From positions 1 to 42,930 of the IMG/VR virus record IMGVR_UViG_3300027706_000085: a stretch of 42,930 nt of DNA, one strand, 5' to 3'. Made by a program: the position numbers and the translations under genes. Every line of letters begins with the position of its first letter. Positions within the stretch are counted from its first letter, which is position 1. Positions 5,889 to 32,314 of this stretch are shown here, piece by piece. The stretch is from a virus (taxonomy: Duplodnaviria; Caudoviricetes). Under the pieces are notes generated by a model. The model was not told the origin of the DNA. It searched no databases and was given only the letters and a program-made list of their open reading frames with translations.

Positions 5889-6092
5889 TTAGCAGCCCAC
5901 CTTTTCCTTGATTACCAGTCCTGTGCAGTGGAGATGCTGCAAGACATCCCCGCGACACTCGGCTTTGTCACTCAGGGAAATATCGGTCAGGCACTGGCGG
6001 GGCACAACCACAGCCGTTGCTTTTGGTTTCTGCGCCGCACAGCCACAGAGAAGCAATGCCGCGCTAACGATACACTTTCGAGAAATGCGCAC
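5889..6092 (-). CDS. Putative lipoprotein (o-spanin candidate)
   Basis: GTG start; SAALLLCGC lipobox followed by a Cys/Pro-containing periplasmic part; downstream of the lysis genes. Confidence 0.6.
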   Translation of the reverse strand: MRISRKCIVSAALLLCGCAAQKPKATAVVVPRQCLTDISLSDKAECRGDVLQHLHCTGLVIKEKVGC

Positions 6093-6252
6093 CGACAAAC
6101 CACGCAATCGGGCCGCACACGAGCAAGCCCTTATTGAGGAAAGACAGTTCATTCCAGCCGCGGAACAGCGCCAGCGCGAACAGCACAATCCCCAGTATCT
6201 TCAGCACGTAGTCCAGATACACCGTCTTTGAGAGCGTCTCGAGAAAGCTCAT
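6064..6252 (-). CDS. Two-TM small membrane protein
   Basis: Two hydrophobic stretches; AGGAGG RBS. Confidence 0.65.
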   Translation of the reverse strand: MSFLETLSKTVYLDYVLKILGIVLFALALFRGWNELSFLNKGLLVCGPIAWFVGAHFSKVYR

Positions 6253-6530: not shown

Positions 6531-6749
6531 TTATCTCTCGCTCCTTAAAAGTAAGTTGAATCCCTTGGTAAGACGAAACGGAATCCGTCCATGGGTCAGG
6601 CTGTAAACGTCTGGCTCTTCTCGCGGGATATTTCCGCGGCCAAAATGCTCAGCATGCAACGTGCAGGCGCATTCGGCCAAGCCAATGCACTTCGGGCATT
6701 GGTACCTACCATCATCATAGAAGCCATCCGCTTGGTCATTCGTGCTCAT
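6531..6749 (-). CDS. Hypothetical Cys-rich protein
   Basis: MSTNDQ...CPKC...CAC; ATGA overlap with the spanin stop. Confidence 0.5.
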   Translation of the reverse strand: MSTNDQADGFYDDGRYQCPKCIGLAECACTLHAEHFGRGNIPREEPDVYSLTHGRIPFRLTKGFNLLLRSER

Positions 6750-7363
6750 AGCAGTGAACACACCACCGCGCCGCCCACGGCCCCTATCGCAGCGCCCTTG
6801 CTGCCCTGTGTGCCCCCCGCCGCCGCCCCGGCCCCTGCGCAGGCGATTACCTTGACCTGCTTGCCAAGGCGATGCAGCCATGAGCCGCCCTTGAGCGCCT
6901 TCTGCAGGTTCGCGTTCTCGCTCTGGAGCGCCTGAACGTCCTTTTGCGAGGCTGCTAGATTCGCTTTGCATTCCTCGCAGGCGACAACCGCTTTCCCCGC
7001 CGGTACAACGTCCTCGGCGGGAATCACGATGGGCTTATTCGGCGGGGCGTTCGGCAAATCCTTGAGCGATTGCGGCAAGGGGCTATCGCTCGTGTCTATG
7101 TGCACTGGGACGGGCAGGGGAATGTATTTATTGATGACGCGCACTGTGTCTGCGGAAGTCTTGATAGCGTCCTTCTCGGCCTGTAGCTGCTTGAGGGCTG
7201 CGTCCAGCTCGGCCTTGTCAGCCGCACGCTGCTTTTCGATCGCTCCGTTAGCGGCTTTGGCCTCTAGGATGCGGTCGTGCGCGTCGAGCCAGTACTTCCC
7301 TGCCGCTGCGCCAACCATCAGCACGATGACGCCTAGAAGGGCTTTGTGCTTCCAGTCAAGCAT
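6746..7363 (-). CDS. Putative i-spanin (Rz-like) with C-terminal glycine-zipper
   Basis: N-terminal TM, two coiled coils separated by a Pro-rich linker, CEEC; lysis-cassette context. Confidence 0.65.
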   Translation of the reverse strand: MLDWKHKALLGVIVLMVGAAAGKYWLDAHDRILEAKAANGAIEKQRAADKAELDAALKQLQAEKDAIKTSADTVRVINKYIPLPVPVHIDTSDSPLPQSLKDLPNAPPNKPIVIPAEDVVPAGKAVVACEECKANLAASQKDVQALQSENANLQKALKGGSWLHRLGKQVKVIACAGAGAAAGGTQGSKGAAIGAVGGAVVCSLL

Positions 7364-7817
7364 GCGCTTCCCACCTTAGCTTTTCCTGCCCATAAATCTG
7401 TTGATAGCGGCGCTGCCGATTAGGCCTACTCCATCCCCCTGGGGATGTCTGCGCGACTACTTTCCACCCGGCTCCTCGCAGACTCGCCCCGCTCTCCGTT
7501 GTCAGCGTGTATGTGACCAAACGTTTTCCGCCCATTGCTCGCCACGCCCGCCAGCACGCGGCATAAAGGAAACTGTTAACGTTCTTTGGCGCATTCGGAA
7601 GCGTACAGGTGCGCAACACCTCTGCGGTAAAAGCGTCATTCAGCAATCTCGCTATGGGCCTCCCCACTATTGCCACCCCCACTAACTCCTCCCCGTCCCG
7701 AGCGCCAATAGCAAATTTACCCCCATCGCGCGACGTTCTTCCGTTGTGGCGGTGAAAGCAAGTCACGAAGTCATTAGCCTTGCGAAGAGTGAGCGGGATA
7801 AGTTCAAGGACCATCAA
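7356..7817 (-). CDS. XF1762-family protein (Mom-like GNAT fold)
   Basis: ANDFV..FHRHN, GVAIVGRPIARLL, EVLRTC, SFLYAACWRAWRAMGGKRLVTYTLTTESGASLRGAGW. Confidence 0.85.
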   Translation of the reverse strand: MMVLELIPLTLRKANDFVTCFHRHNGRTSRDGGKFAIGARDGEELVGVAIVGRPIARLLNDAFTAEVLRTCTLPNAPKNVNSFLYAACWRAWRAMGGKRLVTYTLTTESGASLRGAGWKVVAQTSPGGWSRPNRQRRYQQIYGQEKLRWEAHA

Positions 7818-7870
7818 ATCATCTTCGCCTATTTTTCGCCTTGGTCAATGGTACTCACGGCTGGTCCGTA

Positions 7871-8092
7871 CTAGGACGCTGGCTTTTGCAGCACGTTCCG
7901 CGCGGCATTGACCGCGTACGGCACGGTCACAAACGCGCCCAAGCCGCCCATCGTGAGCGCATCAGGTATCGCGTGGTTCTTGACCACGACAAACACCAGC
8001 ACTGCGCACGCCACTAGCGAATGCACGGCCATGAGTACGCGGCTCGAGGAGCCTTGCCCTTCATCGCTGAATACTTCGCGCCAAAAGCTCAT
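7871..8092 (-). CDS. Putative holin (2 TM)
   Basis: FSDEGQGSSSRV + two TM helices; directly downstream of the endolysin. Confidence 0.7.
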   Translation of the reverse strand: MSFWREVFSDEGQGSSSRVLMAVHSLVACAVLVFVVVKNHAIPDALTMGGLGAFVTVPYAVNAARNVLQKPAS

Positions 8093-8571
8093 CCGTCTTC
8101 CTCCATCGCCGCTCGCTGGACAGCCACGCGGTTGCTATGCGCAATGTCGCGGTAGAACTTCAGCCGCCCCACATTGAGCGTATTCACATAATCCGCTGGA
8201 TTGCCCCACGCCTTCGGCCAGCCCATGGTCGTATCGTGGTAGTAGGTCGCGCCTTCGGTAAGGTCATCGTCGAGGCCCGTAATCACGCCAGAGGCCGCAG
8301 AGAGCGAATCGGTCCAGCTGGCATCTTCGTCGGGCCACTTCTCGCTGTTCGGGTCGTTCGCGTTGAAGCTAGAAAACTGCCACGGCTTCAAAATGACGCT
8401 CTTCCAGTCGCTGCCCCACCAGCCGCCGCGCTTCACGCGATTCGCAATGACATGCGCCACGCCGCGCTTGCCGTCTTGCGATTCTCCTCGCGCTTCCCGC
8501 CAAACCGCCAGCGCCACTAGCGCAATGTCGGAAAGGCTCTCATAGGGCTGAGGCTTCACGCGATAGTCCAA
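8089..8571 (-). CDS. Endolysin, SleB/Hydrolase_2 cell wall hydrolase
   Basis: LAVWREARGESQDGKRGVAHVIANRV, KPWQFSSFN, TEGATYYH, VGRLKFY. Confidence 0.92.
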   Translation of the reverse strand: MDYRVKPQPYESLSDIALVALAVWREARGESQDGKRGVAHVIANRVKRGGWWGSDWKSVILKPWQFSSFNANDPNSEKWPDEDASWTDSLSAASGVITGLDDDLTEGATYYHDTTMGWPKAWGNPADYVNTLNVGRLKFYRDIAHSNRVAVQRAAMEEDG

Positions 8572-8843
8572 TACATTAGGGTTGAGCCTGGGACTTTGTG
8601 ACGCTTCACCTTGCCCAACTTCGCCAGCCGATATAAATCCGTGCTCGCCTTGCTGCGGCTAACGCCGCGCTTTACCGCATATTCCGACGCCGTGAAACTA
8701 TTTGGCGGACGCCTGATCAGCACATCGCGCTCGATTGCTTCCATGCGCTCCCACAAATCGATTGGAGCCTTGGGCTTCAAGGCATTCACAGGTGCACGCG
8801 GCGTTGTTCTGGCAGTGGATAGATTCTTTTTTGTACTTCGCAA
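8556..8843 (-). CDS. Winged-helix DNA-binding protein
   Basis: FTASEYAVKRGVSRSKASTDLYRLAKLGKV; start uncertain. Confidence 0.6.
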   Translation of the reverse strand: MRSTKKNLSTARTTPRAPVNALKPKAPIDLWERMEAIERDVLIRRPPNSFTASEYAVKRGVSRSKASTDLYRLAKLGKVKRHKVPGSTLMYWTIA

Positions 8844-9622
8844 GGGTCCTCGCCTCTTTTCTTGGCCTCGCCATCAAGACGCAAGATGACCGCGCCAATA
8901 TCTGGAATCATTCGGTAGCGGGAATTTTTTCTCATGTATGATGTCTGGACCTGCCATGCGGGAAGGATGATGGCGTGCTTGGATGGATGCTCGACGTGAA
9001 CGAAATAGTGGGCGTGGCCCCTGACGATTACATCCGCCTTGGGGGCCTTCCCTTCCTTGCCGGAGAGCGCCGACCACAATGCTTCGCGGTCAATCGCCAC
9101 GGCGCGGTATAGCCCTCCCGATACGCTGATGCCGTGCGAGAAGTCGAGTCCTACGCCGTCAACATCTAAATCGAGCACTTCCTTCGCGTGCGTGCCAGTT
9201 CCCAGCCCCTCATACGTTGCCGCGCGCAAATCCTTAGCGACATTATCAACGGAGCGGCCAAGCTCGTCGTCGTGATAGAATGTTCCCTTTACGAAATAGG
9301 TCTTGCACTTAGCCCTGTCAAACAACGGTTTGAGAATTTTGACCGACGCCGCTTCTTGATCGCAGACCAGGGGCAAGCACAATTCCGCGCAGCGACTTTT
9401 CGGCTGCTTCCCTTCCACTACATCGCCCACTACAACAATGGCATCGAGCGGCTCGGCGCATGCCCAGGCAATCATGTCCTGCCAGCAATTCCATAAATGC
9501 TTCTGAATCGGGTTTTGCGGTACAGGCTGGCCCGTGGAAGCTACGAAGTCAGGCGGCAGCATTCCGTATATGGAACCAGGGTGAATATCAGAGACGCACA
9601 GTATCCTTCGCCGCTTACTCAT
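8786..9622 (-). CDS. Calcineurin-like metallophosphoesterase
   Basis: VSDIHPG, VVGDVVEG, KGTFYHD, FSHG, RGHAHY motifs. Confidence 0.88.
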   Translation of the reverse strand: MSKRRRILCVSDIHPGSIYGMLPPDFVASTGQPVPQNPIQKHLWNCWQDMIAWACAEPLDAIVVVGDVVEGKQPKSRCAELCLPLVCDQEAASVKILKPLFDRAKCKTYFVKGTFYHDDELGRSVDNVAKDLRAATYEGLGTGTHAKEVLDLDVDGVGLDFSHGISVSGGLYRAVAIDREALWSALSGKEGKAPKADVIVRGHAHYFVHVEHPSKHAIILPAWQVQTSYMRKNSRYRMIPDIGAVILRLDGEAKKRGEDPCEVQKRIYPLPEQRRVHL

Positions 9623-9804: not shown

Positions 9805-9997
9805 GGCCGTTCATGCTTCGCGGATACCGCACGCCATCCGCATGAAGCGCGCCTTCGCGCTCCTCATGCAAGTGCGGGCGGAATTCCGTCAGCAGCCACA
9901 TGAGTCTGCGCATGGCTAGCCAGCCGCCAATCAGCACGGGAACAACGACAATCCCGCCTTGCAAAAGAAGCTGCGTCCAGTTAATTGTGTGTTCCAT
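9794..9997 (-). CDS. Single-TM membrane protein (holin/antiholin-like position)
   Basis: N-terminal TM, charged C-terminus, start of the lysis block. Confidence 0.6.
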   Translation of the reverse strand: MEHTINWTQLLLQGGIVVVPVLIGGWLAMRRLMWLLTEFRPHLHEEREGALHADGVRYPRSMNGHAD

Positions 9998-10304
9998 GCC
10001 CGGTCCTTGGGTTCAGATATGCGCGGATGGCCGCTTCATGCTTTTCCAGCTTGCCAAGCAAGCCGTTGCAGAAGTGGCACAGCAATCCGCGAAATCGTTT
10101 CGTTTTATGGTCATGGTCGGTGACGAGCCGGTCGCGCTTTTTCTTGCAAATCGCGCAGTGCCCTCTTTGGCGTTTGTACGCGCTGCGCCACGCCATTTCC
10201 GAAATCCTGTACCTGCTCCACAGGTATGAAAAATAGGCGCGCCAGTCGAAGCTGCAAGCATCCAAGCGCGGAGGGAACCGCCTTTCTCGCAATTTAACTT
10301 TCAT
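9981..10304 (-). CDS. Endonuclease VII-like (His-Me) nuclease
   Basis: YKRQRGHCAIC...LVTDHDHKTKRFRGLLCHFCNGLLG. Confidence 0.9.
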   Translation of the reverse strand: MKVKLRERRFPPRLDACSFDWRAYFSYLWSRYRISEMAWRSAYKRQRGHCAICKKKRDRLVTDHDHKTKRFRGLLCHFCNGLLGKLEKHEAAIRAYLNPRTGHGTHN

Positions 10305-10443
10305 GTTTCCGATGGGGCCTGCGTCTTGTCCTGCGGGATCGTGGCGCTATCGCAATGCGCAGCTCCGCGAAGAGCCGCTGGATCGCATGCAGCATCTTCG
10401 TTTCGAGTTTGGTTAGCCTGTGGGTTTCAGGGACATCGTTCAT
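10294..10443 (-). CDS. Small basic hypothetical protein (49 aa)
   Basis: Manual translation MNDVPETHRLTKLETKMLHAIQRLFAELRIAIAPRSRRTRRRPHRKHES; ATGA overlap. Confidence 0.45.
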   Translation of the reverse strand: MNDVPETHRLTKLETKMLHAIQRLFAELRIAIAPRSRRTRRRPHRKHES

Positions 10444-11381
10444 TGCGTGACGGTGAACGTGGAGCTTGCCACCTGCATAGGCACACCGTTCTTTGCGAAA
10501 TTCAGCGTCAGCGTGTGCGGCCCGGGCGGGAAGTGCAGGCAGTTGTTTCGCTCATCGCAGAGTTGCGCTTCTTCGCTGCACGTCGTATCGCCGATTACGC
10601 AGCCATTCGCGTTGAACGCCGCAAGGTTGGTGTAGTTGATGTTGTAGGCAAGCTGGCCGACTCCCATGTTCATGAGTTGCGGAGGAGGAGGAGTCGCGCC
10701 GCCCCCGCCAGCGGCCTTGAATGCCGCTGTCGTGAAGGTCCACGAAGTCGCAGTCGTTGTCGTTCCAATGGTGGGCTGCTGCGATCCAGTTGCCGCCACT
10801 ACCTTATCCTCTAGAGCAAGGCGCGCGTCGCTGCCCTCGACGGTAAACCCTGCACCCGCCGACCATGTGGTATCGCCGCCCAATCCGGCAGCGCCGATGA
10901 CGAGGTCGTTCGCGTTGGTCGTCGTGCAGGCCGCTCCGGTGAGCGTTGAGGTGTTGCTCGTCCCCGCAGTCTGCGCCTGACAGTCTAGGCTCGAAGTCGT
11001 GGCAAGACCGCTATACTCGAAAATAACAATCGCCATTGTGCCGGAAATGCCGCTTGATTGCGTGCAGGTGATACCATCTTTCGTTCCACCGATGGCGTTC
11101 TCGACGTAGAACACTTGGCTCATATGCGCGCCGGACTGAACGGCAGCCGTGAGCGACTGCCAGGTATTTCCTTCGCTGTCGGAGACGGATAGAGACCAGC
11201 CCGCCTGATTGCCGCTGCGACACAGCACAATGTAGTTGTTCCCTGCTACTGTCGCGTTGACGAACGTTCCGACGATGGAGGTATTCGCCGTGCCCAGATT
11301 GTTGGCGGTCTGCACCATCGTGATGGCCGCGCTGGCAGGCAGCGCCCAAAGCAGTGCAAGAAGTAGAGCGAGTTTCTTCAT
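10440..11381 (-). CDS. Secreted beta-rich T/S/G-rich fibre/adhesin-like protein with Sec signal peptide
   Basis: ATG 11381 with GAGG RBS: MKKLALLLALLWALPASA|AITMVQ; beta-rich domain, PPPP linker, Cys-paired C-terminal domain. Confidence 0.75.
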   Translation of the reverse strand: MKKLALLLALLWALPASAAITMVQTANNLGTANTSIVGTFVNATVAGNNYIVLCRSGNQAGWSLSVSDSEGNTWQSLTAAVQSGAHMSQVFYVENAIGGTKDGITCTQSSGISGTMAIVIFEYSGLATTSSLDCQAQTAGTSNTSTLTGAACTTTNANDLVIGAAGLGGDTTWSAGAGFTVEGSDARLALEDKVVAATGSQQPTIGTTTTATSWTFTTAAFKAAGGGGATPPPPQLMNMGVGQLAYNINYTNLAAFNANGCVIGDTTCSEEAQLCDERNNCLHFPPGPHTLTLNFAKNGVPMQVASSTFTVTQ

Positions 11382-11773
11382 TGTTTCCTCTTGTTGTTGA
11401 GTCTGTAATTCTCGATTGCCGACCGTCCTGGTATCGCCGCCGCCGCGACGGGACTCCACCAGTGGCCAATGAAACGCCACGTCTTGCTGGGGTCATCCTC
11501 TTCAACGTGGTAGGAGAGCGCGTGCAGCGTGAACTCCACTGCGAATCCAGCCGAACTGAGCGCCACTACGCTTTTCACATCGGGATGCGGGCTGAGTGCG
11601 GGGTTGGTTTCGACGAGGCCGTGACGGGCGTTTATCGTGCTATGTGCATCCGCTGCCATGCAGCCTGCGATAATAGCCGCGCCAACCCAGAATTTCTTCT
11701 GCTTGTACCACGGCTTGGCTTGCGCCAATGGAGCGAGCAGGAACAGCGAGAGAATTGGAGCTAGATATTTCAT
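11378..11773 (-). CDS. Signal-peptide membrane protein, DUF5658-like (D-x-x-x-T...E-x-N-P)
   Basis: MKYLAPILSLFLLAPLAQA|KPWYK...ADAHST...VETNP...HWW; paralog of 14166..14606. Confidence 0.7.
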   Translation of the reverse strand: MKYLAPILSLFLLAPLAQAKPWYKQKKFWVGAAIIAGCMAADAHSTINARHGLVETNPALSPHPDVKSVVALSSAGFAVEFTLHALSYHVEEDDPSKTWRFIGHWWSPVAAAAIPGRSAIENYRLNNKRKQ

Positions 11774-13812
11774 TGCGCTACCACTACCGCTTTCACGTTG
11801 GCCAGCGTCTCTGCCGCTTGTGTGGTGAATTGGATGGAGATGAGATCGCCTGTTGCATAGGTCTGTGTATGTGTGATGTCGGTGCAACTGGTGCCTGTTC
11901 CGAGCGTGCATGTCATCGTGGTAGTCGAGCCGTTCTTGAGCACGGTAACGACCCCGCTAGATGCGTTGACGCCGCCCGTTCCCGCCGAGACAATCAGCGC
12001 CTTGAGTGTGCCCGCGCGAGTCATCAGCTTGCCCGCGCCGATTGTCGTGCTGGTACAGGTAGTTAATGTGACATTCGGGCCTGTGCCGTAAAGTCCAAGT
12101 GTGGAAGCGGCGGAAGCGACGCCGGTGCAAGCGCCCTGCACGCCGTTGCCCGCTTGCACCGAGTATGTTACGCCGTTCTGAATTAACCCAGTGGTGCCCG
12201 CCGTCCATGCCGTTGTGCCATCGTCGTTGACGATGCCGGAGGTTCCCTCCGCCGCGAATTGTGTTGTTCCGCTTGGAGTGACAGTGGAATTTTCAAAAAG
12301 GTTGACAGTTGCTCCGCCCGACCCGAAATGGATGCAGCCTACAGCAGCACCGTTCGTGCACAATATCGTGCCGCCATGAATGTTGATGGTTGCATTTCCG
12401 CCAGACGGATTAAGGCCATCTATTCGGTCCCCGAAAAAGTTTACTTTCGCACCCGAACCCACCACGAAACTTTGTCCCGCCGAGGAGCTTGACCATGTTC
12501 CGCCAGTGCTATTTAGCGTTCCTGTTCCCGTTACAGATGCTCCTTGCCCCGTGTCTCCGACGAACGGCCAGTAAACGTTCACGGGTTGACCGCCCAGAAC
12601 AATGGACCATCCTGGGACACCGGCTGCATCAGACTGGCAATTGATGCAAGTGGCAGGCGCTCCAATCTTGATTCCCGTGAAGCTGCCGCCGCCTGAGAAA
12701 ACGGGGCAGAGCGCCCACACGTAAAGATTTAGTCCCATGAAATTCGCATCGGCACCGATTCCCTTGAGTCCTGCAATAGCGGAAGAGCAACCATTTGCGC
12801 CGCTGTTGCCGCCACCGAAAATAACGAAATCATGCTCGTAGAGTTGCGAAATACCAGAAAGAGCCAAGCCCCCGAAGAAACAAAAGCCGGAAGTGGAACA
12901 AGTGTTCCCTGTGCCAGGGGAAGTGCTCCATGCAAAGGACGGGCTTGGAAGAATCGTGGTTGAAGTTCCCGCGCCGCAACCCGCGATGGTCGGCATGAAA
13001 TTGATGTTCACATTCGGGTTGGAAGAGATGCCATGCTCCACGATGGATGCGCCGCATGGCAGTTGTAGCACGGCGGGCGCATTTTTGAGTTGCGCAATGA
13101 AAGCCGTCCAAGCCGCTTGCCAGCCCGCATCGTCCACATCGCCCCAGAAGAGACATGCTGTCCCTGTGGCGTTCGAGTTAGCATTCAGTGTGATTTGCGT
13201 ATCGGAGTCCACGCTCCTGACCGTAGTGCGAGCGATGCGTGCCGTTCCTGTTAGCAGACAACTCGCATTCGACCAGGCTACTTGCCCGACAGACGCCGTA
13301 GTCAGGAAATTACATTCGCCGGAGGGGCAGGTGACTACTCCGCTGGCATTGGTGACGCTCGCATCCTGTACCCAGTGCGCGTTCGCCTTCACGCCATACG
13401 CCGAGGCGGTTACGATGATTTGTCCAGGTCCTAAACTTGTGCCGCTGCCCGCCGCCCCTGCCACGCTGAAAAAGCTGTTGCTGTTCGCGTCGTATTGGAA
13501 TGCGCATACCGTAGTTGCGTTGGCCGTGGTGTCCACAGTGCATGTGGAATTGATGCTTCCCGCCGCATAGGACCACCCGCTCACCGCATGGCCGGTGGAA
13601 TCCTGTGTGAAGATGAACGTAATCGTAGACGGCGGAGTGCCTGTGGAACTGATATTAATGGCCGTGACAACCTGATTCACCTGAATCTTAAAGCTGTTGC
13701 TGGTGCTTACGTTAGCGGTTATGACGCCGCTGTTTATGGTGAGAACCTGCTGCGCCAGAAGCGGGGACGCGCATAGCAGCGCGAGAAGTAGAACGAGTTT
13801 ACCTTTGAACAA
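11770..13812 (-). CDS. Tailspike/fibre-like beta-helix protein with Sec signal peptide
   Basis: TTG start with GGAGG: LFKGKLVLLLALLCASPLLA|QQ; FTQDSTG fibre motif; YGVKANA...DDAGWQAAW...LQLPCG pectate-lyase-3-like entry. Confidence 0.75.
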   Translation of the reverse strand: MFKGKLVLLLALLCASPLLAQQVLTINSGVITANVSTSNSFKIQVNQVVTAINISSTGTPPSTITFIFTQDSTGHAVSGWSYAAGSINSTCTVDTTANATTVCAFQYDANSNSFFSVAGAAGSGTSLGPGQIIVTASAYGVKANAHWVQDASVTNASGVVTCPSGECNFLTTASVGQVAWSNASCLLTGTARIARTTVRSVDSDTQITLNANSNATGTACLFWGDVDDAGWQAAWTAFIAQLKNAPAVLQLPCGASIVEHGISSNPNVNINFMPTIAGCGAGTSTTILPSPSFAWSTSPGTGNTCSTSGFCFFGGLALSGISQLYEHDFVIFGGGNSGANGCSSAIAGLKGIGADANFMGLNLYVWALCPVFSGGGSFTGIKIGAPATCINCQSDAAGVPGWSIVLGGQPVNVYWPFVGDTGQGASVTGTGTLNSTGGTWSSSSAGQSFVVGSGAKVNFFGDRIDGLNPSGGNATINIHGGTILCTNGAAVGCIHFGSGGATVNLFENSTVTPSGTTQFAAEGTSGIVNDDGTTAWTAGTTGLIQNGVTYSVQAGNGVQGACTGVASAASTLGLYGTGPNVTLTTCTSTTIGAGKLMTRAGTLKALIVSAGTGGVNASSGVVTVLKNGSTTTMTCTLGTGTSCTDITHTQTYATGDLISIQFTTQAAETLANVKAVVVAQ

Positions 13813-14041
13813 AGGAGCCTCCCCCGGAAATCTGTCCGGTGCCGGATTGCAACAAACACACATTGTCGGCGGCGGTTGCCGTCTTGAAGTGCCAATAGCC
13901 TGTTGCGGGATTGGTCCAGCCTTCGTTGGCTGCCCAGTTCTGGCCCGTGGCTACGGGAACGGCGGGCATGGCGGGCGGCGCAACCGCAGCCACGGCCCAA
14001 ATCAGCCCAGCTAGGACAGTAAATCGTTTTACCTTGCTCAT
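13799..14041 (-). CDS. Short secreted protein or truncated fibre fragment (80 aa)
   Basis: MSKVKRFTVLAGLIWAVAAVA... signal-peptide-like N-terminus; overlaps the next start by 14 nt. Confidence 0.5.
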   Translation of the reverse strand: MSKVKRFTVLAGLIWAVAAVAPPAMPAVPVATGQNWAANEGWTNPATGYWHFKTATAADNVCLLQSGTGQISGGGSFVQR

Positions 14042-14128
14042 TAGCTCGCCTTTCGCCTTGTTTTCGCCAATTCCAATCGCCGTAACTCTTGCGGTATCGC
14101 TGTGGGTGGGTTTCGATTTAGTTTCGTC

Positions 14129-14165
14129 TTGCGGATGACGGCACTTTACTCGTAACATCTGAGGC
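14129..14165 (+). promoter_or_regulatory. Leaderless sigma70-like promoter for antisense moron 14166
   Basis: TTGCGG-N18-TAACAT-N7-ATG; homologous to 16993-17029. Confidence 0.6.
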
Positions 14166-14606
14166 ATGAAGTATTTGGCTCTTCTTGCTGTGCTTTTTGC
14201 GGTTCCCTGCTTCGCGCAAGAGCGTCCTAAACCCATCAAAAAAGAGAAGGTGTGGATTGCGCTCGCTGGACTATCTGCTGCATCCGTTTTGTCCGATGCC
14301 GCGGCCACCATGAGAGATCGTGACATTGCGGACGGATACGCGAGGACATACGGCCCTAATGGGTGCGGCATTGCCAGAAACCAGCCCTGCGCGATGACGG
14401 AAATCAATCCGCTTGAACGCCCCTTTGTGAATTTGCCGAAGCCTGCATACTACTCCTGGCGCATCGGTGAGGCTGCTTTCGCCTCTTACTTGGGCTTGCG
14501 CATGAAGCGAAGCCATCGCTGGATTCGGCATATTTGGTGGGTGCCTCAAGCGGTCACAATCGTCAGCGGTGCGGTTGGTGCGGCCTACAGCGCAAGTCAT
14601 AGGTGA
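14166..14606 (+). CDS. Signal-peptide membrane protein, DUF5658-like (antisense moron)
   Basis: MKYLALLAVLFAVPCFA|QERP...SDAAAT...TEINP...IWW; paralog of 11378..11773. Confidence 0.75.
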   Translation: MKYLALLAVLFAVPCFAQERPKPIKKEKVWIALAGLSAASVLSDAAATMRDRDIADGYARTYGPNGCGIARNQPCAMTEINPLERPFVNLPKPAYYSWRIGEAAFASYLGLRMKRSHRWIRHIWWVPQAVTIVSGAVGAAYSASHR

Positions 14607-14609
14607 GCT

Positions 14610-14792
14610 ATGTCCCCAGAATTAGCTGTAACTCTCGTAGGAGCCTGCTTTCTCATTCTCGTTATGCGCCGATGGGGAGCAAGCAAGTACCCTGTTCTGG
14701 CTTGGCGTGTAATCTTTGCCTTCATTGGAGCTTCTATTGTTTGGGTGATGATGAAACTGCGTCGTAATCGAAATGTCTCACTGATTCGCTAG
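14610..14792 (+). CDS. Two-TM small membrane protein (superinfection-exclusion candidate)
   Basis: Two TM helices, basic C-terminus; antisense moron. Confidence 0.65.
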   Translation: MSPELAVTLVGACFLILVMRRWGASKYPVLAWRVIFAFIGASIVWVMMKLRRNRNVSLIR

Positions 14793-14954
14793 GTCCCTCA
14801 AAATGCGGCTGGCATATGCCTGCTCTTCTGGCGTTCCCTCGCGCGCCAATTTCCGCAACCTCTCCCCAGGCGTCGGCGTTTCAGCGTTCCAGACTTGCTG
14901 CACATCGCCTGGAGCGATGCTGAATGGAATTGTTGAAGCTGAGTATATTGGCAT
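14778..14954 (-). CDS. Chimeric 58-aa ORF ending in a copy of the ejection-protein C-terminus
   Basis: TAAGGAG RBS; MPIYSASTIPFSIAPGDVQQVWNAETPTPG-ERLRKLAREGTPEEQAYASRILRDLANQ; 23/25 aa identical to the end of 17142..18542. Confidence 0.7.
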   Translation of the reverse strand: MPIYSASTIPFSIAPGDVQQVWNAETPTPGERLRKLAREGTPEEQAYASRILRDLANQ

Positions 14955-14990
14955 TGTTTGTTTCTCCTTAAATTCGCGCCATCCCGCCGC

Positions 14991-16913
14991 TCATCGCACT
15001 ACCTTCCAATTGATTGTTGACGCCGTAGGTGTGACCGCCGCCGCCGTGGGATTGCAGTAGGCGAAATTCACGTTGCCCGCAGTCGGCCATTTCTGAAGTG
15101 TGAGCACGCCTGGATTCGCGCCGACTGCCGCATTGAACGAAGTCTCAATGGTGTCCGTCGTCGAAACACCGCTGGCCGCTACCGTGACCGTTGTGCCGCA
15201 CGCGCCGGAAGCAATCGCGGCTGTGGTCATGGTCGCTGTGCCGCTGGCGATGGTAAGCGTATTCGCATGAGAACCATCGGAAACGATTTGCGAGTTCCAC
15301 GTCAGGCGGTCGCTTGTGTCCTTGGTGAGAGGAATCCATGCACTATTGGCGTGATTGCGCCAGTTGACTTGATCTGCGTCCGCAAACCAGTAGCCGCTGA
15401 ATGGGCCGGCCACCGCTCCACCAAGCGTTACCTGGTTGTATGTAACACCGGTGCTTACCCCTGTCGAAATGCTCGTGAAGTTGGAATCCGTGGTGATGTC
15501 GCGCAGGCTGATTGCAGAAAAAGCAGAATTGGCAATGAGAGCGCTTGGCAGCGCACCTCCCACGGCCAATATCTTTTCCAGGTAGGCCGTAGTCCCAGAA
15601 AAGGCAGAATTAAGAAGCGTTCCGCCAGTTACCCCGTTGTACTGGCAGTAGCCCCCGCTCCATTTGATGTTACGCGCCGTGGTTGCAGTGTTCGGAACAT
15701 TGATTACGCTGGTGTTGTTGCCCGTAAGTTCCGTGTAAACATTCGTCAGAAGCACGCCATTGGCGTTGTTGACCGTGATGTTGGAAGCCGTCCCAGTATC
15801 CTGCTCGATGTTCCCGCCGTAGTAGGTGAACATCGTAGTGGTGTGCGTAGAATCGCCAATCTGGATATTACTCGTCGAGCTGTTGTAGATATGGCAGGCG
15901 ACGCATTGGACATCGTTGGCGAATAGCGTTTGCAGGCCGATTACCTGATTTCCAATGCGGACATTTTCCAGGTAGGTGTCGATGGTCGCCGAGCCTGTCG
16001 TGTTGTTTCCAATGCGTACTGCGGCGGTGGAAAAACTGCTTTGCTCGATGGCGACATTCTTAATCCGCACGTCATACTGGCCGTTGAAAATGTCAATGGC
16101 TATCGTCCCGGTGCCATTGTGCTTGATGTTCAGATTCTCAATGATGGAACCTGACGAAGCTCCGGCGGTTCCGTTCACCACTATGGTCGCGGATGCGCCA
16201 CCCGTCCAGTTAATCGTTGTCCCTGGAAGGTTCAAGCCGCCCATCGCGCCCGAAAGATGAACGGGCTTATTGATGACGATTTGCGAAGCGCATGCGAACG
16301 TTCCAGGCGGCAGAAGAATCCATCCGCCATTTGCAGGCAAATCGGCAATGGCCGCATTGATGCCTGCTCCGATGTCGGTCTGACTGTACTTATTCCCATC
16401 GATAAATTTCACGTCATTGATGTTGTAGGCCGTAATCGTATTCTGCCCCGCCGTAGCGGTAAGGTTGCCGGAAAAGGTGTTGTTTCCGGAAAAGGTGTTG
16501 TTTCCGGAAAACGTATTGTTTGCGCTGGTGGCAATGCAGGTCGTCCCGGGGATGCAGGAGATCACAAAAACATAAGGCCCTTGCGGAGAAGAGATGCCCG
16601 CTCCGCTTACTGTGTAGGTGTAGCTGCCCGGCGCGGCAAAGAACGCAGGGATGTTGCCCAGGCCGTCAGTAGTCAATGGATTCGCCAGCGGCACGGTGAG
16701 AGCCGCATCGCTGAAAATACTGACTGTGTTTGTGCAGGGATTACCAACGGCTGGATACCCGCAAACAGTGATGGTCGCGCCAGACTTAGGCGCTCCGGTT
16801 GGGCCAAAGACGGGGCCGATTACGCCCGGGCCGCCCTGAGCAAAAGCTGAGCTTCCGCAGAGCAGAAGAAAGAACGCGAGGATAGACAGCTTTCCTGTGC
16901 GAGACTCTACCAT
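14991..16913 (-). CDS. Tailspike-like beta-helix protein with Sec signal peptide
   Basis: MVESRTGKLSILAFFLLLCGSSAFA|QGG; SDAALTVPLANPLTTDGLG head-binding-like motif; (SGNNTF)3 shaft; INAAIADLPANGGWILLPPGTF pectate-lyase-like motif. Confidence 0.8.
   Translation of the reverse strand: MVESRTGKLSILAFFLLLCGSSAFAQGGPGVIGPVFGPTGAPKSGATITVCGYPAVGNPCTNTVSIFSDAALTVPLANPLTTDGLGNIPAFFAAPGSYTYTVSGAGISSPQGPYVFVISCIPGTTCIATSANNTFSGNNTFSGNNTFSGNLTATAGQNTITAYNINDVKFIDGNKYSQTDIGAGINAAIADLPANGGWILLPPGTFACASQIVINKPVHLSGAMGGLNLPGTTINWTGGASATIVVNGTAGASSGSIIENLNIKHNGTGTIAIDIFNGQYDVRIKNVAIEQSSFSTAAVRIGNNTTGSATIDTYLENVRIGNQVIGLQTLFANDVQCVACHIYNSSTSNIQIGDSTHTTTMFTYYGGNIEQDTGTASNITVNNANGVLLTNVYTELTGNNTSVINVPNTATTARNIKWSGGYCQYNGVTGGTLLNSAFSGTTAYLEKILAVGGALPSALIANSAFSAISLRDITTDSNFTSISTGVSTGVTYNQVTLGGAVAGPFSGYWFADADQVNWRNHANSAWIPLTKDTSDRLTWNSQIVSDGSHANTLTIASGTATMTTAAIASGACGTTVTVAASGVSTTDTIETSFNAAVGANPGVLTLQKWPTAGNVNFAYCNPTAAAVTPTASTINWKVVR
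16467..16520. repeat. 3 x 18-bp coding repeat (S-G/A-N-N-T-F)
   Basis: ccggaaaaggtgttgttt x2 plus ccggaaaacgtattgttt. Confidence 0.9.
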
Positions 16914-16992
16914 CTTCGCTTTCCTTTCGTCAAGCACTTTCGTAAAAGATTCGCCACTAGGAATTGTGGGGTGGTTTCCGGTCATTTCGTCC

Positions 16993-17029
16993 TTGCGTGG
17001 CTACGGGGCATGCGAGTAACCTCAGGTTC
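16993..17029 (+). promoter_or_regulatory. Leaderless sigma70-like promoter for antisense moron 17030
   Basis: TTGCGT-N18-TAACCT-N7-ATG. Confidence 0.6.
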
Positions 17030-17176
17030 ATGTCTCCGCTGTGGCGCGTCATTACGTGGCCCCTTCGCGTATACGCTTTTGTTTGCGTTGTGCTGTTTAT
17101 CGCCATGCCAATTTGGATTTACAGATGGATAAGGCGCAAGATTACTTCTTCTCCAAGTCGCGCAATATCCGGTTAG
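17030..17176 (+). CDS. Small membrane protein (superinfection-exclusion candidate)
   Basis: MSPLWRVITWPLRVYAFVCVVLFIAMPIWIYRWIRRK; antisense, immediately after the last ejection gene. Confidence 0.6.
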   Translation: MSPLWRVITWPLRVYAFVCVVLFIAMPIWIYRWIRRKITSSPSRAISG

Positions 17177-18542
17177 CATAGGCTTGTTCTTCAGGCGTCC
17201 CCTCGCGCGAAAGTTTCCGCAGTCGCTCCATATCTAGCGATGCTTCTTGTGCCATCCATTCCGGCACGCCCTGCGCTCTTGACTTTTGCAGAAGATCAGC
17301 TCTTGCTTGCGATCGGATGCCAAGTTTCGGACTTACACTCCGACCTAGCGGCGTTTCCGGCGCTGGTAGCGCAACTCGCTCCCTTACACCGCTGAATTCC
17401 TCACTTGGAATGCGCGTGGGCAATCGTGGTACAGATCGTCCCTCTCGGGGGACCATGCCTGCCGCAAACTGCATGCCGCGTTCGCTGGCGCGGACTTTGG
17501 CGATGCGTGCCAGTTGCGCCTCCGAAGCAGCCTCACCTGGTGTAAGAATGAGGGAACCTGCGGGTCGTGCAACGTTTTCCATTGCTTCGCCGCCTGACGG
17601 CGCAAGGGCTCTCCTGAATCTCGGTACAAATATCACATTAGGTGCTGGCGCCGCCGTTCCCGCGATTGGCAACTTTGCGCTGCCCAATGGAGTCGCGCTG
17701 GATGTCATGCCCTCAAATGGCGTTGGCCTTCCCTGTAAGGGATCGGGGGCTATTGGCCGCTTCGGTATAAGCGCATCTGCGACATTCCGTCCTAGCACAA
17801 ATCCCATAAGTTCCCCGCCGGGAATACCCGTCATGTGGCCGAGCGCAGCGCCGCCAGCTTGAGCCAGCGACCTAGTTCCCGGCGTTAGAGAACCTTTTTC
17901 AGTGCGCAATTTCGCTCCAATGTAATCAGAGCTTTTCCCTATCAGTGGTTCTGCGACGCGAGCAATACCTCTGGCCACCGGCTTGATAGCCTCTGCTGTT
18001 GCAGCTTGGGCTGTTCCTTGCGCCAATGCCCCGCCAACGTCACCCTGTCCAGCCTGCTCACCTAAGCCTGCCGCCCATGGTCCCACTAGCGGCAGTGCGG
18101 CTGCGATAGAATGCCCGATGGATTGGAGGGGCTTCCCTGCTGCTCCATATTGTGCAGCAATCGCGTTTTCACGATATGCAGGGTCGAAAATGTACTTGTT
18201 GGCAAGCCAATTGAGCTTTTGTCCCTCCGTTTTCCCTGCTGGGAGCAGTGCGTCCTTTCCGAATTGATAAGCTCCGGTGACCATTCCCTTCAGGCCTTGC
18301 TTTGTTTGCTGATAGAGATTGGATGGCGTAAATCCGTAATAACCAGGAACAGGAGGATGCTCGCGCTCGAAATCTGTCGGCTGGTCCTGTCCTCGAATGT
18401 GCATGAGGTACGCTGCTTGGTCACGCGGCGTAGCTTTCGCAAAGTCAGGGTCGACCTGCTTTAGATATGCCGCTTGGTCCTGCGGATTCGCTTTCAGGAA
18501 CTCAGGGTCGGTTCTGTAATCGTATTGCTGGCCGTCAGGCAT
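17142..18542 (-). CDS. Putative DNA ejection/internal virion protein
   Basis: A/G/Q-rich helical protein with DPEFLKA...Q.AYL repeats; position analogous to P22 gp16/gp20. Confidence 0.6.
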   Translation of the reverse strand: MPDGQQYDYRTDPEFLKANPQDQAAYLKQVDPDFAKATPRDQAAYLMHIRGQDQPTDFEREHPPVPGYYGFTPSNLYQQTKQGLKGMVTGAYQFGKDALLPAGKTEGQKLNWLANKYIFDPAYRENAIAAQYGAAGKPLQSIGHSIAAALPLVGPWAAGLGEQAGQGDVGGALAQGTAQAATAEAIKPVARGIARVAEPLIGKSSDYIGAKLRTEKGSLTPGTRSLAQAGGAALGHMTGIPGGELMGFVLGRNVADALIPKRPIAPDPLQGRPTPFEGMTSSATPLGSAKLPIAGTAAPAPNVIFVPRFRRALAPSGGEAMENVARPAGSLILTPGEAASEAQLARIAKVRASERGMQFAAGMVPREGRSVPRLPTRIPSEEFSGVRERVALPAPETPLGRSVSPKLGIRSQARADLLQKSRAQGVPEWMAQEASLDMERLRKLSREGTPEEQAYANRILRDLEKK

Positions 18543-19849
18543 TACTGTTTCGCCTTCCATTGCCTAAACGTGGGAATCGCTCCCGACTGGCTGGGCGCCG
18601 CTTGTCCGCCCGCTTCTGCCACATCCTGGTCAATGGCGGAGAGCTTCTTCTTGGTATCCGCAAGAATGCGCCGCTGCGTCAACACATCTGGCGCGTCAAT
18701 CAGCGACTGTTGCGCCTCGTCCAGAATGGCGCTCTTCTTGCGCAGCAGTTCGCTACGCTTATTAATCAGGCTCTTGATTTGTCCGCGCTGCGCTTCGGTA
18801 ATGCTCAAGCCCTTGCTGGGATCGAGTTGCCACTTGTTTAGAGCGGCCTTCAATGCCTCAAAGTTTGTGCGTCCGCCAACGATGCGGGAGATTTCCGCTT
18901 CATTCATGCGCAAGCCTGAACCTTGTCCACCGGCCATAGCAGTCAGTAGCTCAGGGGCGATAAGCGAGTCGGCTTGCGGCGTTCGCTCATTGATGCTCAG
19001 TTCCAGCCGGGACACGCGGTCCAACGCATCGGCAATAGGCTTCCCAATGGTGGAGAGCTGGCCAGTGATGAATTTGTACCCGTTGTCTAGTCTGGTGTCG
19101 CCAGCGCCCGGGGCCGCGACGGGCAGTTTTGAAGGCCCCATGTCTTTGATGATGTCGCCTGTGTCCTCATCCACAAGGACCTTGTGATTCTCGCCCTTAA
19201 CGCTCAGGTCCGTGAGGGCTGTGCGGCGTTTTGCTGGAGCGCCCGGCAGGGGCTGCGTGCCAGTAAGGTTTCCGTTCTCATCCCATACACCCTGCAATCC
19301 CTTGCCGCGCAGCACGCCCTCTACCTGATTTCGGTGTTCAAGGGCTAATGCGCTCTGCTTACTCTGCTCTAAGTCAGGCCGTTGTGAGAAGAAATCCGCC
19401 TGTGCGGAATGCAGCCTGTTTGTGATGTCCTGCGTCTGCATCTGTCGATTGCGGTCAATGATTCCCGCAAGCAGGTTGTACTGCTGCATGAGCGGCTGAA
19501 TCTGGCGCTGCCGCTGGTAGTCTCCGGTGATGACGGAGCCCAGAGTAGGGTTGCGAGCGCCGACAAAACTTCCAAGAATCGCCCGCCAAGTGGGGATACT
19601 CTGTGGCTGCAGAGCTGCTCGCAGGCGATTCCCTACGTTCTCGAAGTCTTGATACTCTTGCGTGCCTTGGATGGAGGGTTGAGGCATGGAAGGGTGCATG
19701 GCCAGAGAATATGCTCCGCCAGCGTCCGGCTGCATGTTGAATGTTGGCGCGACAGGCAGTTCATCGTCCGTGCCGCTGCCTCCATAGGCCACATCCCATA
19801 CCGGATTGTTGAATCGGAATCTGGGGTCTAATGCGTTAAGCGTTGCCAT
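18542..19849 (-). CDS. Putative DNA ejection/internal virion protein
   Basis: Q-rich helical protein in the ejection block. Confidence 0.6.
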   Translation of the reverse strand: MATLNALDPRFRFNNPVWDVAYGGSGTDDELPVAPTFNMQPDAGGAYSLAMHPSMPQPSIQGTQEYQDFENVGNRLRAALQPQSIPTWRAILGSFVGARNPTLGSVITGDYQRQRQIQPLMQQYNLLAGIIDRNRQMQTQDITNRLHSAQADFFSQRPDLEQSKQSALALEHRNQVEGVLRGKGLQGVWDENGNLTGTQPLPGAPAKRRTALTDLSVKGENHKVLVDEDTGDIIKDMGPSKLPVAAPGAGDTRLDNGYKFITGQLSTIGKPIADALDRVSRLELSINERTPQADSLIAPELLTAMAGGQGSGLRMNEAEISRIVGGRTNFEALKAALNKWQLDPSKGLSITEAQRGQIKSLINKRSELLRKKSAILDEAQQSLIDAPDVLTQRRILADTKKKLSAIDQDVAEAGGQAAPSQSGAIPTFRQWKAKQ

Positions 19850-19855
19850 GCTGCC

Positions 19856-20134
19856 TCACAGGAGAAAGCCTGCTACTCTGCCCAAGCCTCCAAGAAATCC
19901 GCCGCGGCCAGCTTGCCCTGCCAATCCACCGAGAAGCATATTCCTGCCGCTGCGCTGTCCTTGCGCTCCGGCGCGGAAGGCCTGCATAAAACTAGGAGCT
20001 TCGGGCTGCTGGTTGTCGGGAGTAAACCCGCCGCTTGGCTCAAGGCCGGAGCCAAGGTCTGGAGCATCGGGCTCGGGAAGATAGCTCTGCGCCTTCCGTA
20101 TCGGTGACTGCATTCCGCCCATGAAACTGAACAT
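19856..20134 (-). CDS. Gly-rich small virion protein
   Basis: Coupled ORF; Gly-zipper-like C-terminus. Confidence 0.6.
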   Translation of the reverse strand: MFSFMGGMQSPIRKAQSYLPEPDAPDLGSGLEPSGGFTPDNQQPEAPSFMQAFRAGAQGQRSGRNMLLGGLAGQAGRGGFLGGLGRVAGFLL

Positions 20135-20718
20135 TAGATAATTCCTCCAAGGCTCGAACCGAGGCTCGACATAAAACTATCGCCGAATCCAGGATGCCCT
20201 TTCACGATTCCATAGGTGCCAACGCTCTGGCCCACAAGCTGGTTCTGCAACTGATTCAGGCTGTTCAGGAAGCTGGTGTCCACGCCATAGAGTTGCGCGA
20301 TTCCCTGCAAGCCAATCATCTTCCGGCGCAAGGCTTCATCCGCGAAATCTTTCTGATTTTGCAATTCCTGCTGAGCCATCGCCTGGCCCTTTTGTCGGCT
20401 GAGGCTGCGCATGAAGGAACCATAGCCTGCCGCGTTCCCCGTTCGCGCCATACGCCGCGAAGCAGCATCTGCCGCCGCACCCGCAGAGCTGCCAATCGTT
20501 CCAAGCGTGCTCTGCTCAATGGCGCTCTTCTCTTGCGGAGAATAGCCGGAATTGAGCAGCGACGTGTAGCCTGGCATGAGAGCGCCAAACTCAGAACTGC
20601 GCTGGCCGAGCGTGGGCCGCCCAAGAGAAGCTAAGAAGCTAGACTGCTGGCCGAGAGTCCTGTCAATTCCCTTGCGGCTGCCTGAATCAAATGAAATGCC
20701 TGGATAGAATCCGCCCAT
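20134..20718 (-). CDS. Putative DNA pilot/ejection protein (gp7-like)
   Basis: G/S/Q-rich with ARTGNAAG and a C-terminal SLGSSLGG. Confidence 0.6.
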   Translation of the reverse strand: MGGFYPGISFDSGSRKGIDRTLGQQSSFLASLGRPTLGQRSSEFGALMPGYTSLLNSGYSPQEKSAIEQSTLGTIGSSAGAAADAASRRMARTGNAAGYGSFMRSLSRQKGQAMAQQELQNQKDFADEALRRKMIGLQGIAQLYGVDTSFLNSLNQLQNQLVGQSVGTYGIVKGHPGFGDSFMSSLGSSLGGII

Positions 20719-20730
20719 ATATGAGTCACC

Positions 20731-21261
20731 CTATAACAGCGATACTTTTGTTCGTATCGTTCCGCTGTTTACGTAGCCGTATCCCGGAATCTGTGATTGC
20801 CCGCTGCCCTGCGATGGGGAAAGCGCCGGACCGCCCGATGCTGTCGAGAGTTGGCCCGGATTGACCGCTGTTGGCGGATTGCCGAATGTAATCCGGTTGC
20901 TCAGGCCGCCGAGTTTTGTGCTCTTGTACCAGCGCCAGTAGGTTGTCTGTCCCGCAAGCGTCGAAGTGCGGTAGTTCCTTGCAGGCCCAAGAGGAATTAC
21001 ATGCGCATCGGCAAAAGACGGAACGGTTGCATATTCCAGGAAGTAGTCCTGTCCCTGCTCTGGATGCTTGTCAGTGATTTGCACGTCAATCACGCCATTG
21101 GAACCTGTCGCATTGATGCTTCCTTGCGCCTGCGGATCTTCCACACCCCCCAGTGCTGCCAGAATCAGGTTCATGTGTGCCTGCACTTTCTGTAAATCCT
21201 CATAAAGTCCCGGATTGTCACTGCGGACTGAAACGATGTTCTTGAGTGTCAGAGGCTTCAT
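20731..21261 (-). CDS. Putative tail/virion structural protein
   Basis: ATG 21261 (MKPLTLKN...) coupled to the upstream stop; Fn3-like C-half. Confidence 0.65.
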   Translation of the reverse strand: MKPLTLKNIVSVRSDNPGLYEDLQKVQAHMNLILAALGGVEDPQAQGSINATGSNGVIDVQITDKHPEQGQDYFLEYATVPSFADAHVIPLGPARNYRTSTLAGQTTYWRWYKSTKLGGLSNRITFGNPPTAVNPGQLSTASGGPALSPSQGSGQSQIPGYGYVNSGTIRTKVSLL

Positions 21262-32125: not shown

Positions 32126-32314
32126 TCAGATTTTGAATTTCCGCTTGTGGGCCGCGAGCTTGTTCTGATACGCAGCGATAGCAGCGCCTTTGCCCTTCGC
32201 CGCTTCTATCCGCTTGAAATTCCCCGTGGTTTTAGTTCTTCCAAGAGCGTGGACGGCAGCGCGTCCATGCGCTCCCTTCGGTTTGTGCCCTTCACTTGGC
32301 GGAACGAGTTTCAT
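32126..32314 (-). CDS. Small basic protein
   Basis: K/R/H-rich; ATGA coupling. Confidence 0.65.
   Translation of the reverse strand: MKLVPPSEGHKPKGAHGRAAVHALGRTKTTGNFKRIEAAKGKGAAIAAYQNKLAAHKRKFKI

Follow-up and report, generated by a model that had tools for sequence, protein, structure and literature searches.

Predicted Sec export of a cysteine-paired tailspike-like protein in a podovirus-like phage, and its possible attachment to the particle at lysis

The DNA analysed here, below called the window, is the whole of virus record IMGVR_UViG_3300027706_000085, with a length of 42,930 bases and an estimated completeness of 95%. A block of genes at 10440–16913 encodes three large proteins, F1, F2 and F3, whose genes start at positions 16913, 13812 and 11381 respectively, and F1 is the only recognisable tailspike-like protein of the record. 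Since its gene starts with a predicted Sec signal peptide, the product is likely to be exported, cleaved and folded in the periplasm. Judged from the sequences, Sec export, cleavage by signal peptidase I and disulfide formation by the host Dsb proteins can be predicted for F1 with high confidence, and the exported spikes would, as a somewhat favoured prediction, dock at lysis on particles that had been made without them.

Signal peptides and translational starts

Signal peptides were called by a hand-made rule, and not by SignalP, that asks for a basic n-region, an uncharged hydrophobic core of eight residues and small residues at positions -3 and -1. The rule was applied to 58 genes of the window, five of which, all outside the block, were entered at approximate starts, and it flagged seven: six of the eight genes within 10440–16913, and only the Rz-like spanin gene among the 50 outside. 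The F1 gene starts with ATG preceded by AAAGGA, the F2 gene with TTG preceded by GGAGG, and the F3 gene with ATG preceded by AGAGGA, and at the alternative longer starts (16985, 13863 and 11480) the ribosome-binding motif is weaker or missing. Homologs start with an equivalent leader. The original prediction, that the three large proteins begin with signal peptides, is thereby borne out, and the ribosome-binding motifs stand at the leader starts. It had extended the claim to the genes starting at 14041, 11773 and 14166; these leaders are also flagged by the rule, but the 14041 frame has no homolog and may not be a gene.

The six flagged block proteins all lack a Tat motif and a lipobox, and their mature chains contain no strong transmembrane segment; export by the Tat or lipoprotein routes was accordingly rejected. 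By the same rule, the leaders have the n-h-c organisation and the AxA cut of predicted Sec/signal peptidase I substrates. In F1 there is no in-frame ATG, GTG or TTG within the first 48 mature codons, so no internal start would yield the whole N-terminal domain in the cytoplasm, and an isoform of this kind was discarded as a candidate.

The mature parts of F1, F2 and F3 contain 10, 20 and 8 cysteines, exactly as counted before. That most of them form close pairs holds for 10 of the 19 consecutive pairs in the three proteins together (spacing of at most 12 residues), and fails for the remaining half. The products of all three genes are likely to fold outside the cytoplasm, because they combine secretion signals with even-numbered sets of cysteines. 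A shaft earlier read as (SGNNTF)3 is in fact SANNTF-SGNNTF-SGNNTF, with two exact copies only. Annotation pipelines label genes of this kind 'tail fiber' or 'hypothetical' and overlook the leaders.

The N-terminal domain and body of F1

In a first search all 13 F1 homologs found were judged by eye to open with signal-like leaders. An iterated profile of the first 110 mature residues matched 85 open reading frames (ORFs) in the collected loci, and a hydrophobic core with a small-X-small motif immediately precedes the domain in nearly all of the intact ones. Compared with the Protein Data Bank (PDB), a profile of 22 sequences matched the 'Tailspike head-binding domain' of 7eeq (E 0.001) and the tail spike 9vyg (E 0.005), with a multi-repeat human NOMO2 chain ranked above 7eeq (E 0.0007). 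A model of the domain built from 46 sequences (pLDDT 87.7) placed the head-binding domains of Pan3, Pam1, Sf6 and P22 first in Foldseek, with TM scores of 0.54–0.62, and found 17 matches at E<=0.001 in a viral library, including phage tailspike and pectate-lyase-type proteins. In VIA the model matched Pam1 (7eeq) with a Z of 9.2 and an rmsd of 2.9 over 88 residues, the sole match above 8. The head-binding-like motif noticed at first is thus real, and the N-terminal domain of F1 is predicted to have the Pam1/P22 head-binding fold.

Scans with Pfam and PHROGs gave no match for any gene of the block. A single-sequence model of mature F1 reached a pLDDT of 40.9, and its best Foldseek match had an E of 1.3e-3, with none at E<=0.001; the top rows are beta-helices, and no Pfam match for a beta-helix was found in F1. 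The body is probably a beta-helix, which these model data weakly suggest. Run over the whole record, the head-binding profile matches F1 only, in agreement with the earlier statement that there is no separate signal-less tailspike gene. F1 is predicted to resemble the P22/Pam1 tailspike in function and fold, and to depart from it in the feature of cytoplasmic synthesis.

Leaders and cysteines among F1 homologs

The survey comprised at least 95 F1 homologs, with 70 signal-bearing and 19 signal-less proteins and six that were unclassified and left out; the counts that follow refer to the homologs listed. Relatives mostly lacking signal peptides would have spoken against the leaders, and the majority has them. 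At least two cysteines are present in the head-binding domain of 69 of the 70 signal-bearing proteins, against none of the 19 without signal. The total number of mature cysteines is even in 57/70 and 10/19 of them respectively, with medians of 1.9 and 0.6 cysteines per 100 residues. The cysteine pairs of the domain have three mutually exclusive placements, found in 23, 20 and 22 sequences; 4 others show a fourth placement. This suggests that a disulfide was gained repeatedly once the domain was exported. A second domain has a cysteine pair in 3/3 signal-bearing N-terminal copies against 0/3 signal-less ones. As a control of parity within the loci, an even number was found in 56/70 signal-bearing proteins against 56/94 hub, 3/13 portal and 25/42 capsid proteins, and among all beta-rich ORFs in 30 phage loci in 23/25 with signal against 29/64.

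A C-terminal membrane anchor was found in none of the 70 signal-bearing homologs, and Tat-type leaders likewise in none. No Dsb-like gene was found among the genes of the window. The idea that all acidobacterial phages export such proteins was rejected, as Tunturi 3, Tunturi 4, G004, G015 and G016 have signal-less ones. Among the relatives there is one complete phage (L002:6065-18160, G020) with P22-like ejection genes and two leader-bearing proteins with a head-binding domain, one of which has 2,134 aa and 54 cysteines.

Attachment of F1 to the particle

In the proposed course of events, F1 would pass through Sec, lose its leader, be oxidised by the Dsb proteins of the host and trimerise in the periplasm, and heads, adaptor, hub and ejection proteins would meanwhile be built in the cytoplasm. 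With no outer-membrane sorting signal apparent, the trimers would stay in the periplasm. Lysis is likely to proceed through holin holes because the endolysin has no leader, and when the inner membrane and wall fail after the action of holin and endolysin, particles and spikes would find themselves in one space bounded by the outer membrane. Here the spikes would bind the hub, their predicted docking partner, through the predicted head-binding domain before the outer membrane is breached. Tailspikes of P22 attach spontaneously to finished heads in vitro. Our literature search returned no paper on this in vitro addition, and the available part of PMC8402733 does not cover it.

The distribution of the domain favours attachment of F1. 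Sixteen virus records, chosen as relatives of the hub or the fibres and several of them contributors to the profile, were searched whole: ten have only signal-bearing copies of the domain, three only signal-less ones, three none, and no record has both, so signal-bearing copies seem to replace signal-less ones genome by genome. The signal-less copies in L106, L110, L111 and L114 are located directly after the adaptor gene, and in L001 and L102 a signal-bearing copy lies between the hub and the adaptor. In 5/5 host genomes the domain occurs once, within a particle gene cluster of phage origin, and in no other host protein. The copies in these chromosomal clusters have a median dN/dS of 0.083 (650 non-independent pairs from 48 sequences), in keeping with purifying selection.

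Several observations weigh against attachment or reduce what the covariation can carry. Two of the three records with no match to the domain are 100% complete, and related phages may therefore do without it; another point is that L013, one of these records, still has a signal-bearing block. The hub contains a sugar-binding or galactose-binding-like insert that could bind the receptor itself. In Tunturi 2, a cultured phage compared below, the lipoprotein-like gp72 carries half of the head-binding motif, and together with the bacterial enzyme WceF it shows that a head domain can persist on exported proteins that are not part of a virion. The fold is also common to CnaB and pilin domains, CnaB2 with a Z of 7.7 in VIA being tied with P22 and Sf6. 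In a quick tree of 90 head-binding domains, made with the cysteine columns removed, there are four changes of signal state, only two of them forced by well-supported branches, and the covariation counts share ancestry; the two independent pairs in the tree both go the expected way, a number that cannot reach significance. Finally, neither 'mass spectrometry' nor 'signal peptide' was found by a word search in the main text of the Tunturi paper (PMC11924767), the supplementary gene tables of which could bear on the matter.

The best surviving alternative, which we consider possible but on the whole unlikely, is that the proteins are exported, disulfide-folded late depolymerases or adhesins that never enter the particle, and either clear capsule and biofilm at lysis or mask receptors in the envelope. 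The head domain would then be kept as a cap that stabilises the trimer, and inserts in the hub and adaptor would bind the virion to its host. Removal of the head domain of WceF leads to aggregation (PMC7949094, in part), and gp72, the galactose-binding-like insert, distant relatives with hubs of 1,400–2,200 codons of open frame, and the records without a head-binding domain fit in with such a secretome, as do F3 and the 11773 and 14166 products, which have no particle-binding domain. On the other hand, a signal-less copy never accompanies a signal-bearing one in any record, the gene is part of the tail module in L001, L102, Tunturi 2 and the chromosomal cluster, and the domain is absent elsewhere in the five host genomes. 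With no C-terminal anchor in the 70 listed homologs and neither lipobox nor Tat motif, a route to surface display is moreover missing.

It is quite improbable that the spikes act as diffusible bridges, meeting particles long after lysis or on the next host, with the beta-helix bound to glycan and an attachment that is reversible and shared between phages. The sequence evidence for export would be the same in this case, and the fibre blocks are highly mosaic among close relatives, but dilution after lysis should make capture inefficient; the Tunturi stocks of 1e8–1e9 PFU (plaque-forming units) per mL and the clear plaques (PMC11924767, in part) say little either way. Just as little weight is given to the leaders being unused, with true starts downstream or uncleaved hydrophobic anchors on ordinary cytoplasmic tailspikes: the calls do come from a hand-made rule, which wrongly flagged at least one protein, a hub with a misplaced start, and several relatives have ordinary signal-less versions, but this is opposed by the ribosome-binding motifs at the leader starts, a domain that begins at the AxA cut across homologs, domain cysteine pairs that occur only together with a leader, and the 48 mature codons of F1 with no internal start.

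Docking of exported spikes at lysis is the reading preferred here. Of the two possibilities offered in the original prediction, attachment to virions is for F1 somewhat more likely than free secretion, and the export and oxidative folding common to both are supported by the covariation of leader and cysteines. We rate it slightly better than an even chance that a lineage of acidobacterial podophages, including the cultured Tunturi 1 and Tunturi 2 and a domesticated cluster resembling a gene transfer agent, has repeatedly moved the folding of its receptor-binding proteins to the periplasm, so that virions are completed at lysis in a second compartment. To our knowledge, particles of tailed phages are taken to be built entirely in the reducing cytoplasm. 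If the reading is true, tailed phages would have a two-compartment assembly and an infectivity that depends on Sec and Dsb of the host, disulfide-dependent binding and enzyme modules would be open to them and could be recruited from the host secretome, and docking, if shown, would be a categorically new assembly route. Even if the proteins are only secreted, about 6 of 43 kb would be devoted to a late secretome of tailspike-derived proteins, which is undescribed in the searchable literature; our search, which reached few subscription papers, found none that describes tail fibres or tailspikes with signal peptides in tailed phages.

Other proteins of the block

The N-terminal domain of F2 (13468–13752) corresponds to the C-terminal domain of signal-less fibres in relatives. 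F2 is assigned to PF26209 in a precomputed table, its first Atlas match (0.91) is to the pectate lyase family, and a PDB sequence search gave no useful match; its body is likely to be a beta-helix. F2 is likely to be a second spike, either attached through the fibre-type N-terminal domain or released free. For F3, structural look-up gave no support for a beta-helix and no fibre hallmark. The pectate-lyase-like beta-helices once suggested for all three large proteins are accordingly a lead for F2, a faint indication for F1 and unsupported for F3. Nor can all genes of the block be called fibre-like, as the head-binding domain is present in F1 only and the three small genes do not encode fibres. 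F3 and the small block genes are likely to encode exported accessories that are free or envelope-bound.

Between F1 and F2 lies a mini-ORF (14778–14954) that is a scar of recombination within the fibre block. The part derived from a beta-protein has an intact paralog at 31749–32117, and the copy of the end of the 17142–18560 gene is 68% identical to it. Small genes on the plus strand with hydrophobic segments (14166–14792 and 16964–17176) follow each copy of this ejection-gene end, and are possible superinfection-exclusion morons.

Genome organisation and host

The features are collected in Table 1. On the minus strand the order is terminase, portal-like gene, scaffold, head protein, adaptor, hub, ejection-like genes, spike block, endolysin and Rz-like gene. 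Genes for a tail tube, sheath or tape measure were not recognised in the window, and the phage is therefore probably podovirus-like; no tyrosine integrase was found in it. The hub-like protein has inserts, including the galactose-binding-like domain (Pfam PF03944, E 1.9e-4, residues 560–654), and besides being the predicted docking partner of the spikes it is predicted to be a rival site of receptor binding.

Table 1. Positions of the predicted features in the window, and loci of the chromosomal relatives
Feature	Position	Strand	Basis or remark
Terminase	33740–35191	-	PHROG 2, E 2e-32
Portal-like gene	29354–31747	-	From position and size
Major head protein	26824–28113	-	Next to scaffold in the gene order
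Head-tail adaptor, SU10-adaptor-like, signal-less	24608–25558	-	Pfam SU10_adaptor, E 2.3e-5, below cut-off
Hub/nozzle-like tail protein, 983 aa, signal-less	21258–24209	-	PHROG 3287, E 6.8e-13; hub role putative
Four cysteine-free ejection-protein-like genes	17142–20718	-	From position and composition; no library match
F1, tailspike-like, 640 aa, 10 mature Cys	14991–16913	-	Sole block gene with head-binding domain
F1 predicted Sec signal peptide, 25 aa, AFA/Q cut	16839–16913	-	Rule-based; conserved domain of homologs begins at cut
F1 Pam1/P22-type head-binding domain, pair Cys26-Cys35 (mature numbering)	16554–16838	-	Profile, model, Foldseek, VIA
F1 neck or shaft, CIPGTTC pair and three S(A/G)NNTF	16464–16553	-	Sequence
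F1 predicted right-handed beta-helix	15624–16436 (approximate limits)	-	Weak model evidence
F1 C-terminal beta domain	14994–15275	-	Common to other fibre-block proteins; Cys pair in 6/7 aligned copies
Recombination scar	14778–14954	-	26 N-terminal aa of small signal-less beta-protein family and diverged end of 17142–18560 gene
Small predicted exported protein, 146 aa, moron-like	14166–14606	+	Kept with signal in closest relative
ORF of 80 aa, hydrophobic N-terminus	13799–14041	-	No homolog in fetched loci; doubtful gene
F2, spike-like, 680 aa from TTG, 20 mature Cys	11770–13812	-	Predicted signal peptide 13753–13812
Small predicted exported protein, 131 aa	11378–11773	-	Kept with signal in closest relative; not fibre-like
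F3, beta-rich, 313 aa, predicted signal peptide, 8 mature Cys	10440–11381	-	Family recurs signal-bearing in relatives
Lysis genes	6746–8571	-	Hydrolase, holin candidate, Rz-like spanin
Cell-wall hydrolase (endolysin), signal-less	8089–8571	-	Pfam Hydrolase_2, E 6.5e-15
Holin candidate	7871–8092	-	Putative
Rz-like spanin	6746–7363	-	PHROG Rz-like, E 0.0013
Chromosomal clusters (loci L014–L093), e.g. G006:C1; L028, L046, L058, L070, L085	~993000–1024500 (G006:C1)		Different, mostly Acidiferrales, species

Two more genes of the lysis region, at 7356–7817 and 8786–9622, encode a Mom-like DNA modification protein (PHROG 1384, E 3e-31) and a calcineurin-like phosphoesterase. Downstream of the Rz-like gene, at about 5889–6110 on the minus strand, there is a short ORF with a lipobox and further Cys, possibly an outer-membrane spanin. 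An IS1595-family transposase is encoded inside the phage genome at 37588–38511 on the plus strand (Pfam, E 1e-43). As many as six HNH or endonuclease VII genes are present in the 43 kb (1393–1803, 2675–3307, 9981–10304, 32311–32640, 32801–33292 and 39637–40065). A DUF6745 protein at 41997–42929, preceded by many SV(W/R/G)(D/A) repeats, is truncated at the contig end.

In species-representative genomes 152 relatives of the hub were found, and the titles of 71 among the best 80 are acidobacterial, which makes Acidobacteriota the likely host. The metagenomes holding sequence of the block are from soil and mine, with no RNA datasets among the listed holders. Contigs from two runs carry the block letter for letter, although the window itself may derive from either of them, and on this identity an assembly artefact was rejected as its origin. 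In a cultured-phage collection tblastn gave no match for the hub, the capsid or the head-binding domain, and the hub profile matched no PDB sequence.

Chromosomal relatives

In the host chromosomes the relatives make up a podophage-derived cluster for particle and lysis functions, about 25–30 kb long and located at a fixed site. It contains terminase, portal, capsid, adaptor, one signal-bearing fibre, hub, an SLT lysin and a spanin-like gene, and looks like a domesticated element resembling a gene transfer agent. Host genes are found upstream in the three genomes displayed, no tRNA gene was found in the ten flanking loci scanned, and in 4/4 genomes the nearest tyrosine recombinase is more than 20 kb away, serine integrases not having been searched. 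A DsbA-like gene and NadE are located downstream in 45 of the 55 loci that have at least 9 kb on this side, and the CxxC motif is kept in 49 of 50 DsbA-like matches. The DsbA-like neighbour is not taken as support, because NadE and isocitrate dehydrogenase genes also lie at this site, which may simply be where the cluster settled. Our literature search found nothing on this cluster in Acidobacteriota.

Comparison with known systems

The pIII and pVIII proteins of filamentous phages are exported by Sec, and pIII is a disulfide-bonded receptor-binding protein. These coat proteins are membrane-anchored and assembled during extrusion, whereas proteins of the F1 type are soluble products of a lytic tailed phage. 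In tailed phages the known use of Sec is that of endolysins, such as Lys44 of fOg44 and the signal-arrest-release (SAR) endolysins (PMC6116005, in part), which share the host pathway with F1 but are not parts of the particle. A preprint on huge phages deals with sortase substrates, PspA and outer-membrane proteins, and in the portion available not fibres (bioRxiv 10.64898/2026.10.24.761521). The MAT fibres of Bdellovibrio are signal-bearing trimers resembling phage fibres, with disulfides in their tip domains; they differ in being surface adhesins encoded by the host, most of which end in an S74 chaperone (PMC10769870, in part). No Pfam match to S74 is present in the proteins of the window, and F1–F3 have no Pfam match at all, the comparison not extending to the MAT domain itself.

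WceF of Pantoea stewartii is, like F1, an exported protein with a P22-like head domain; it is a trimeric beta-helix that is not part of a virion, and in contrast to F1 it is a bacterial enzyme of a biofilm operon that is exported folded by Tat (PMC7949094, in part). The features that mark WceF, a Tat leader and a gene in an exopolysaccharide operon of the host, are not found in the F1 family: none of the 70 homologs has a Tat leader, and the genes are located in clusters that encode particles. Cysteine pairs have moreover been gained.

With the tailspikes of Pam1 (7eeq), Pan3 (9vyg), Sf6 (gp14, 7sg7) and P22 (gp9, 1lkt), F1 shares the predicted N-terminal fold and the neck, and may share the beta-helix body; its gene likewise has hub, adaptor and ejection-like genes as neighbours in a podovirus-like late region. 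Classical tailspikes have no leader and both fold and attach in the cytoplasm, whereas the domain of F1 is preceded by a predicted Sec leader and has a cysteine pair that is missing from signal-less homologs. In Sf6 it is the head-binding domain that holds the spike trimer on two protomers of the hub (PMC9728967, in part).

A similar arrangement is found in Tunturi 2 (PP885685; PMC11924767), a cultured podophage of the acidobacterium Tunturiibacter, in which gp12, gp13, gp14, gp16 and gp17 start with signal-like leaders and the mature parts of gp12, gp13, gp14 and gp17 have 20, 10, 20 and 34 cysteines respectively. Tunturi 2 is not close to the window phage, as BLASTP found no counterpart of the hub, the capsid, the portal or the terminase. 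Its gp72 (L138:950-1243), of 97 aa and distant from the tail genes, may be a decoy or exclusion protein. The annotations of gp13, gp14 and gp17 are tail fiber, pectin lyase and virion structural protein. The fibre-like proteins of Tunturi 3 and 4 are signal-less, and the trait is thus lineage-specific. In Tunturi 2, gp12 has the same head-binding domain (E 3–4e-7) behind a leader, and its gene follows directly after that of the adaptor-like 'tail protein' gp11, so that the proposed docking is directly testable in a cultured phage with the same arrangement.

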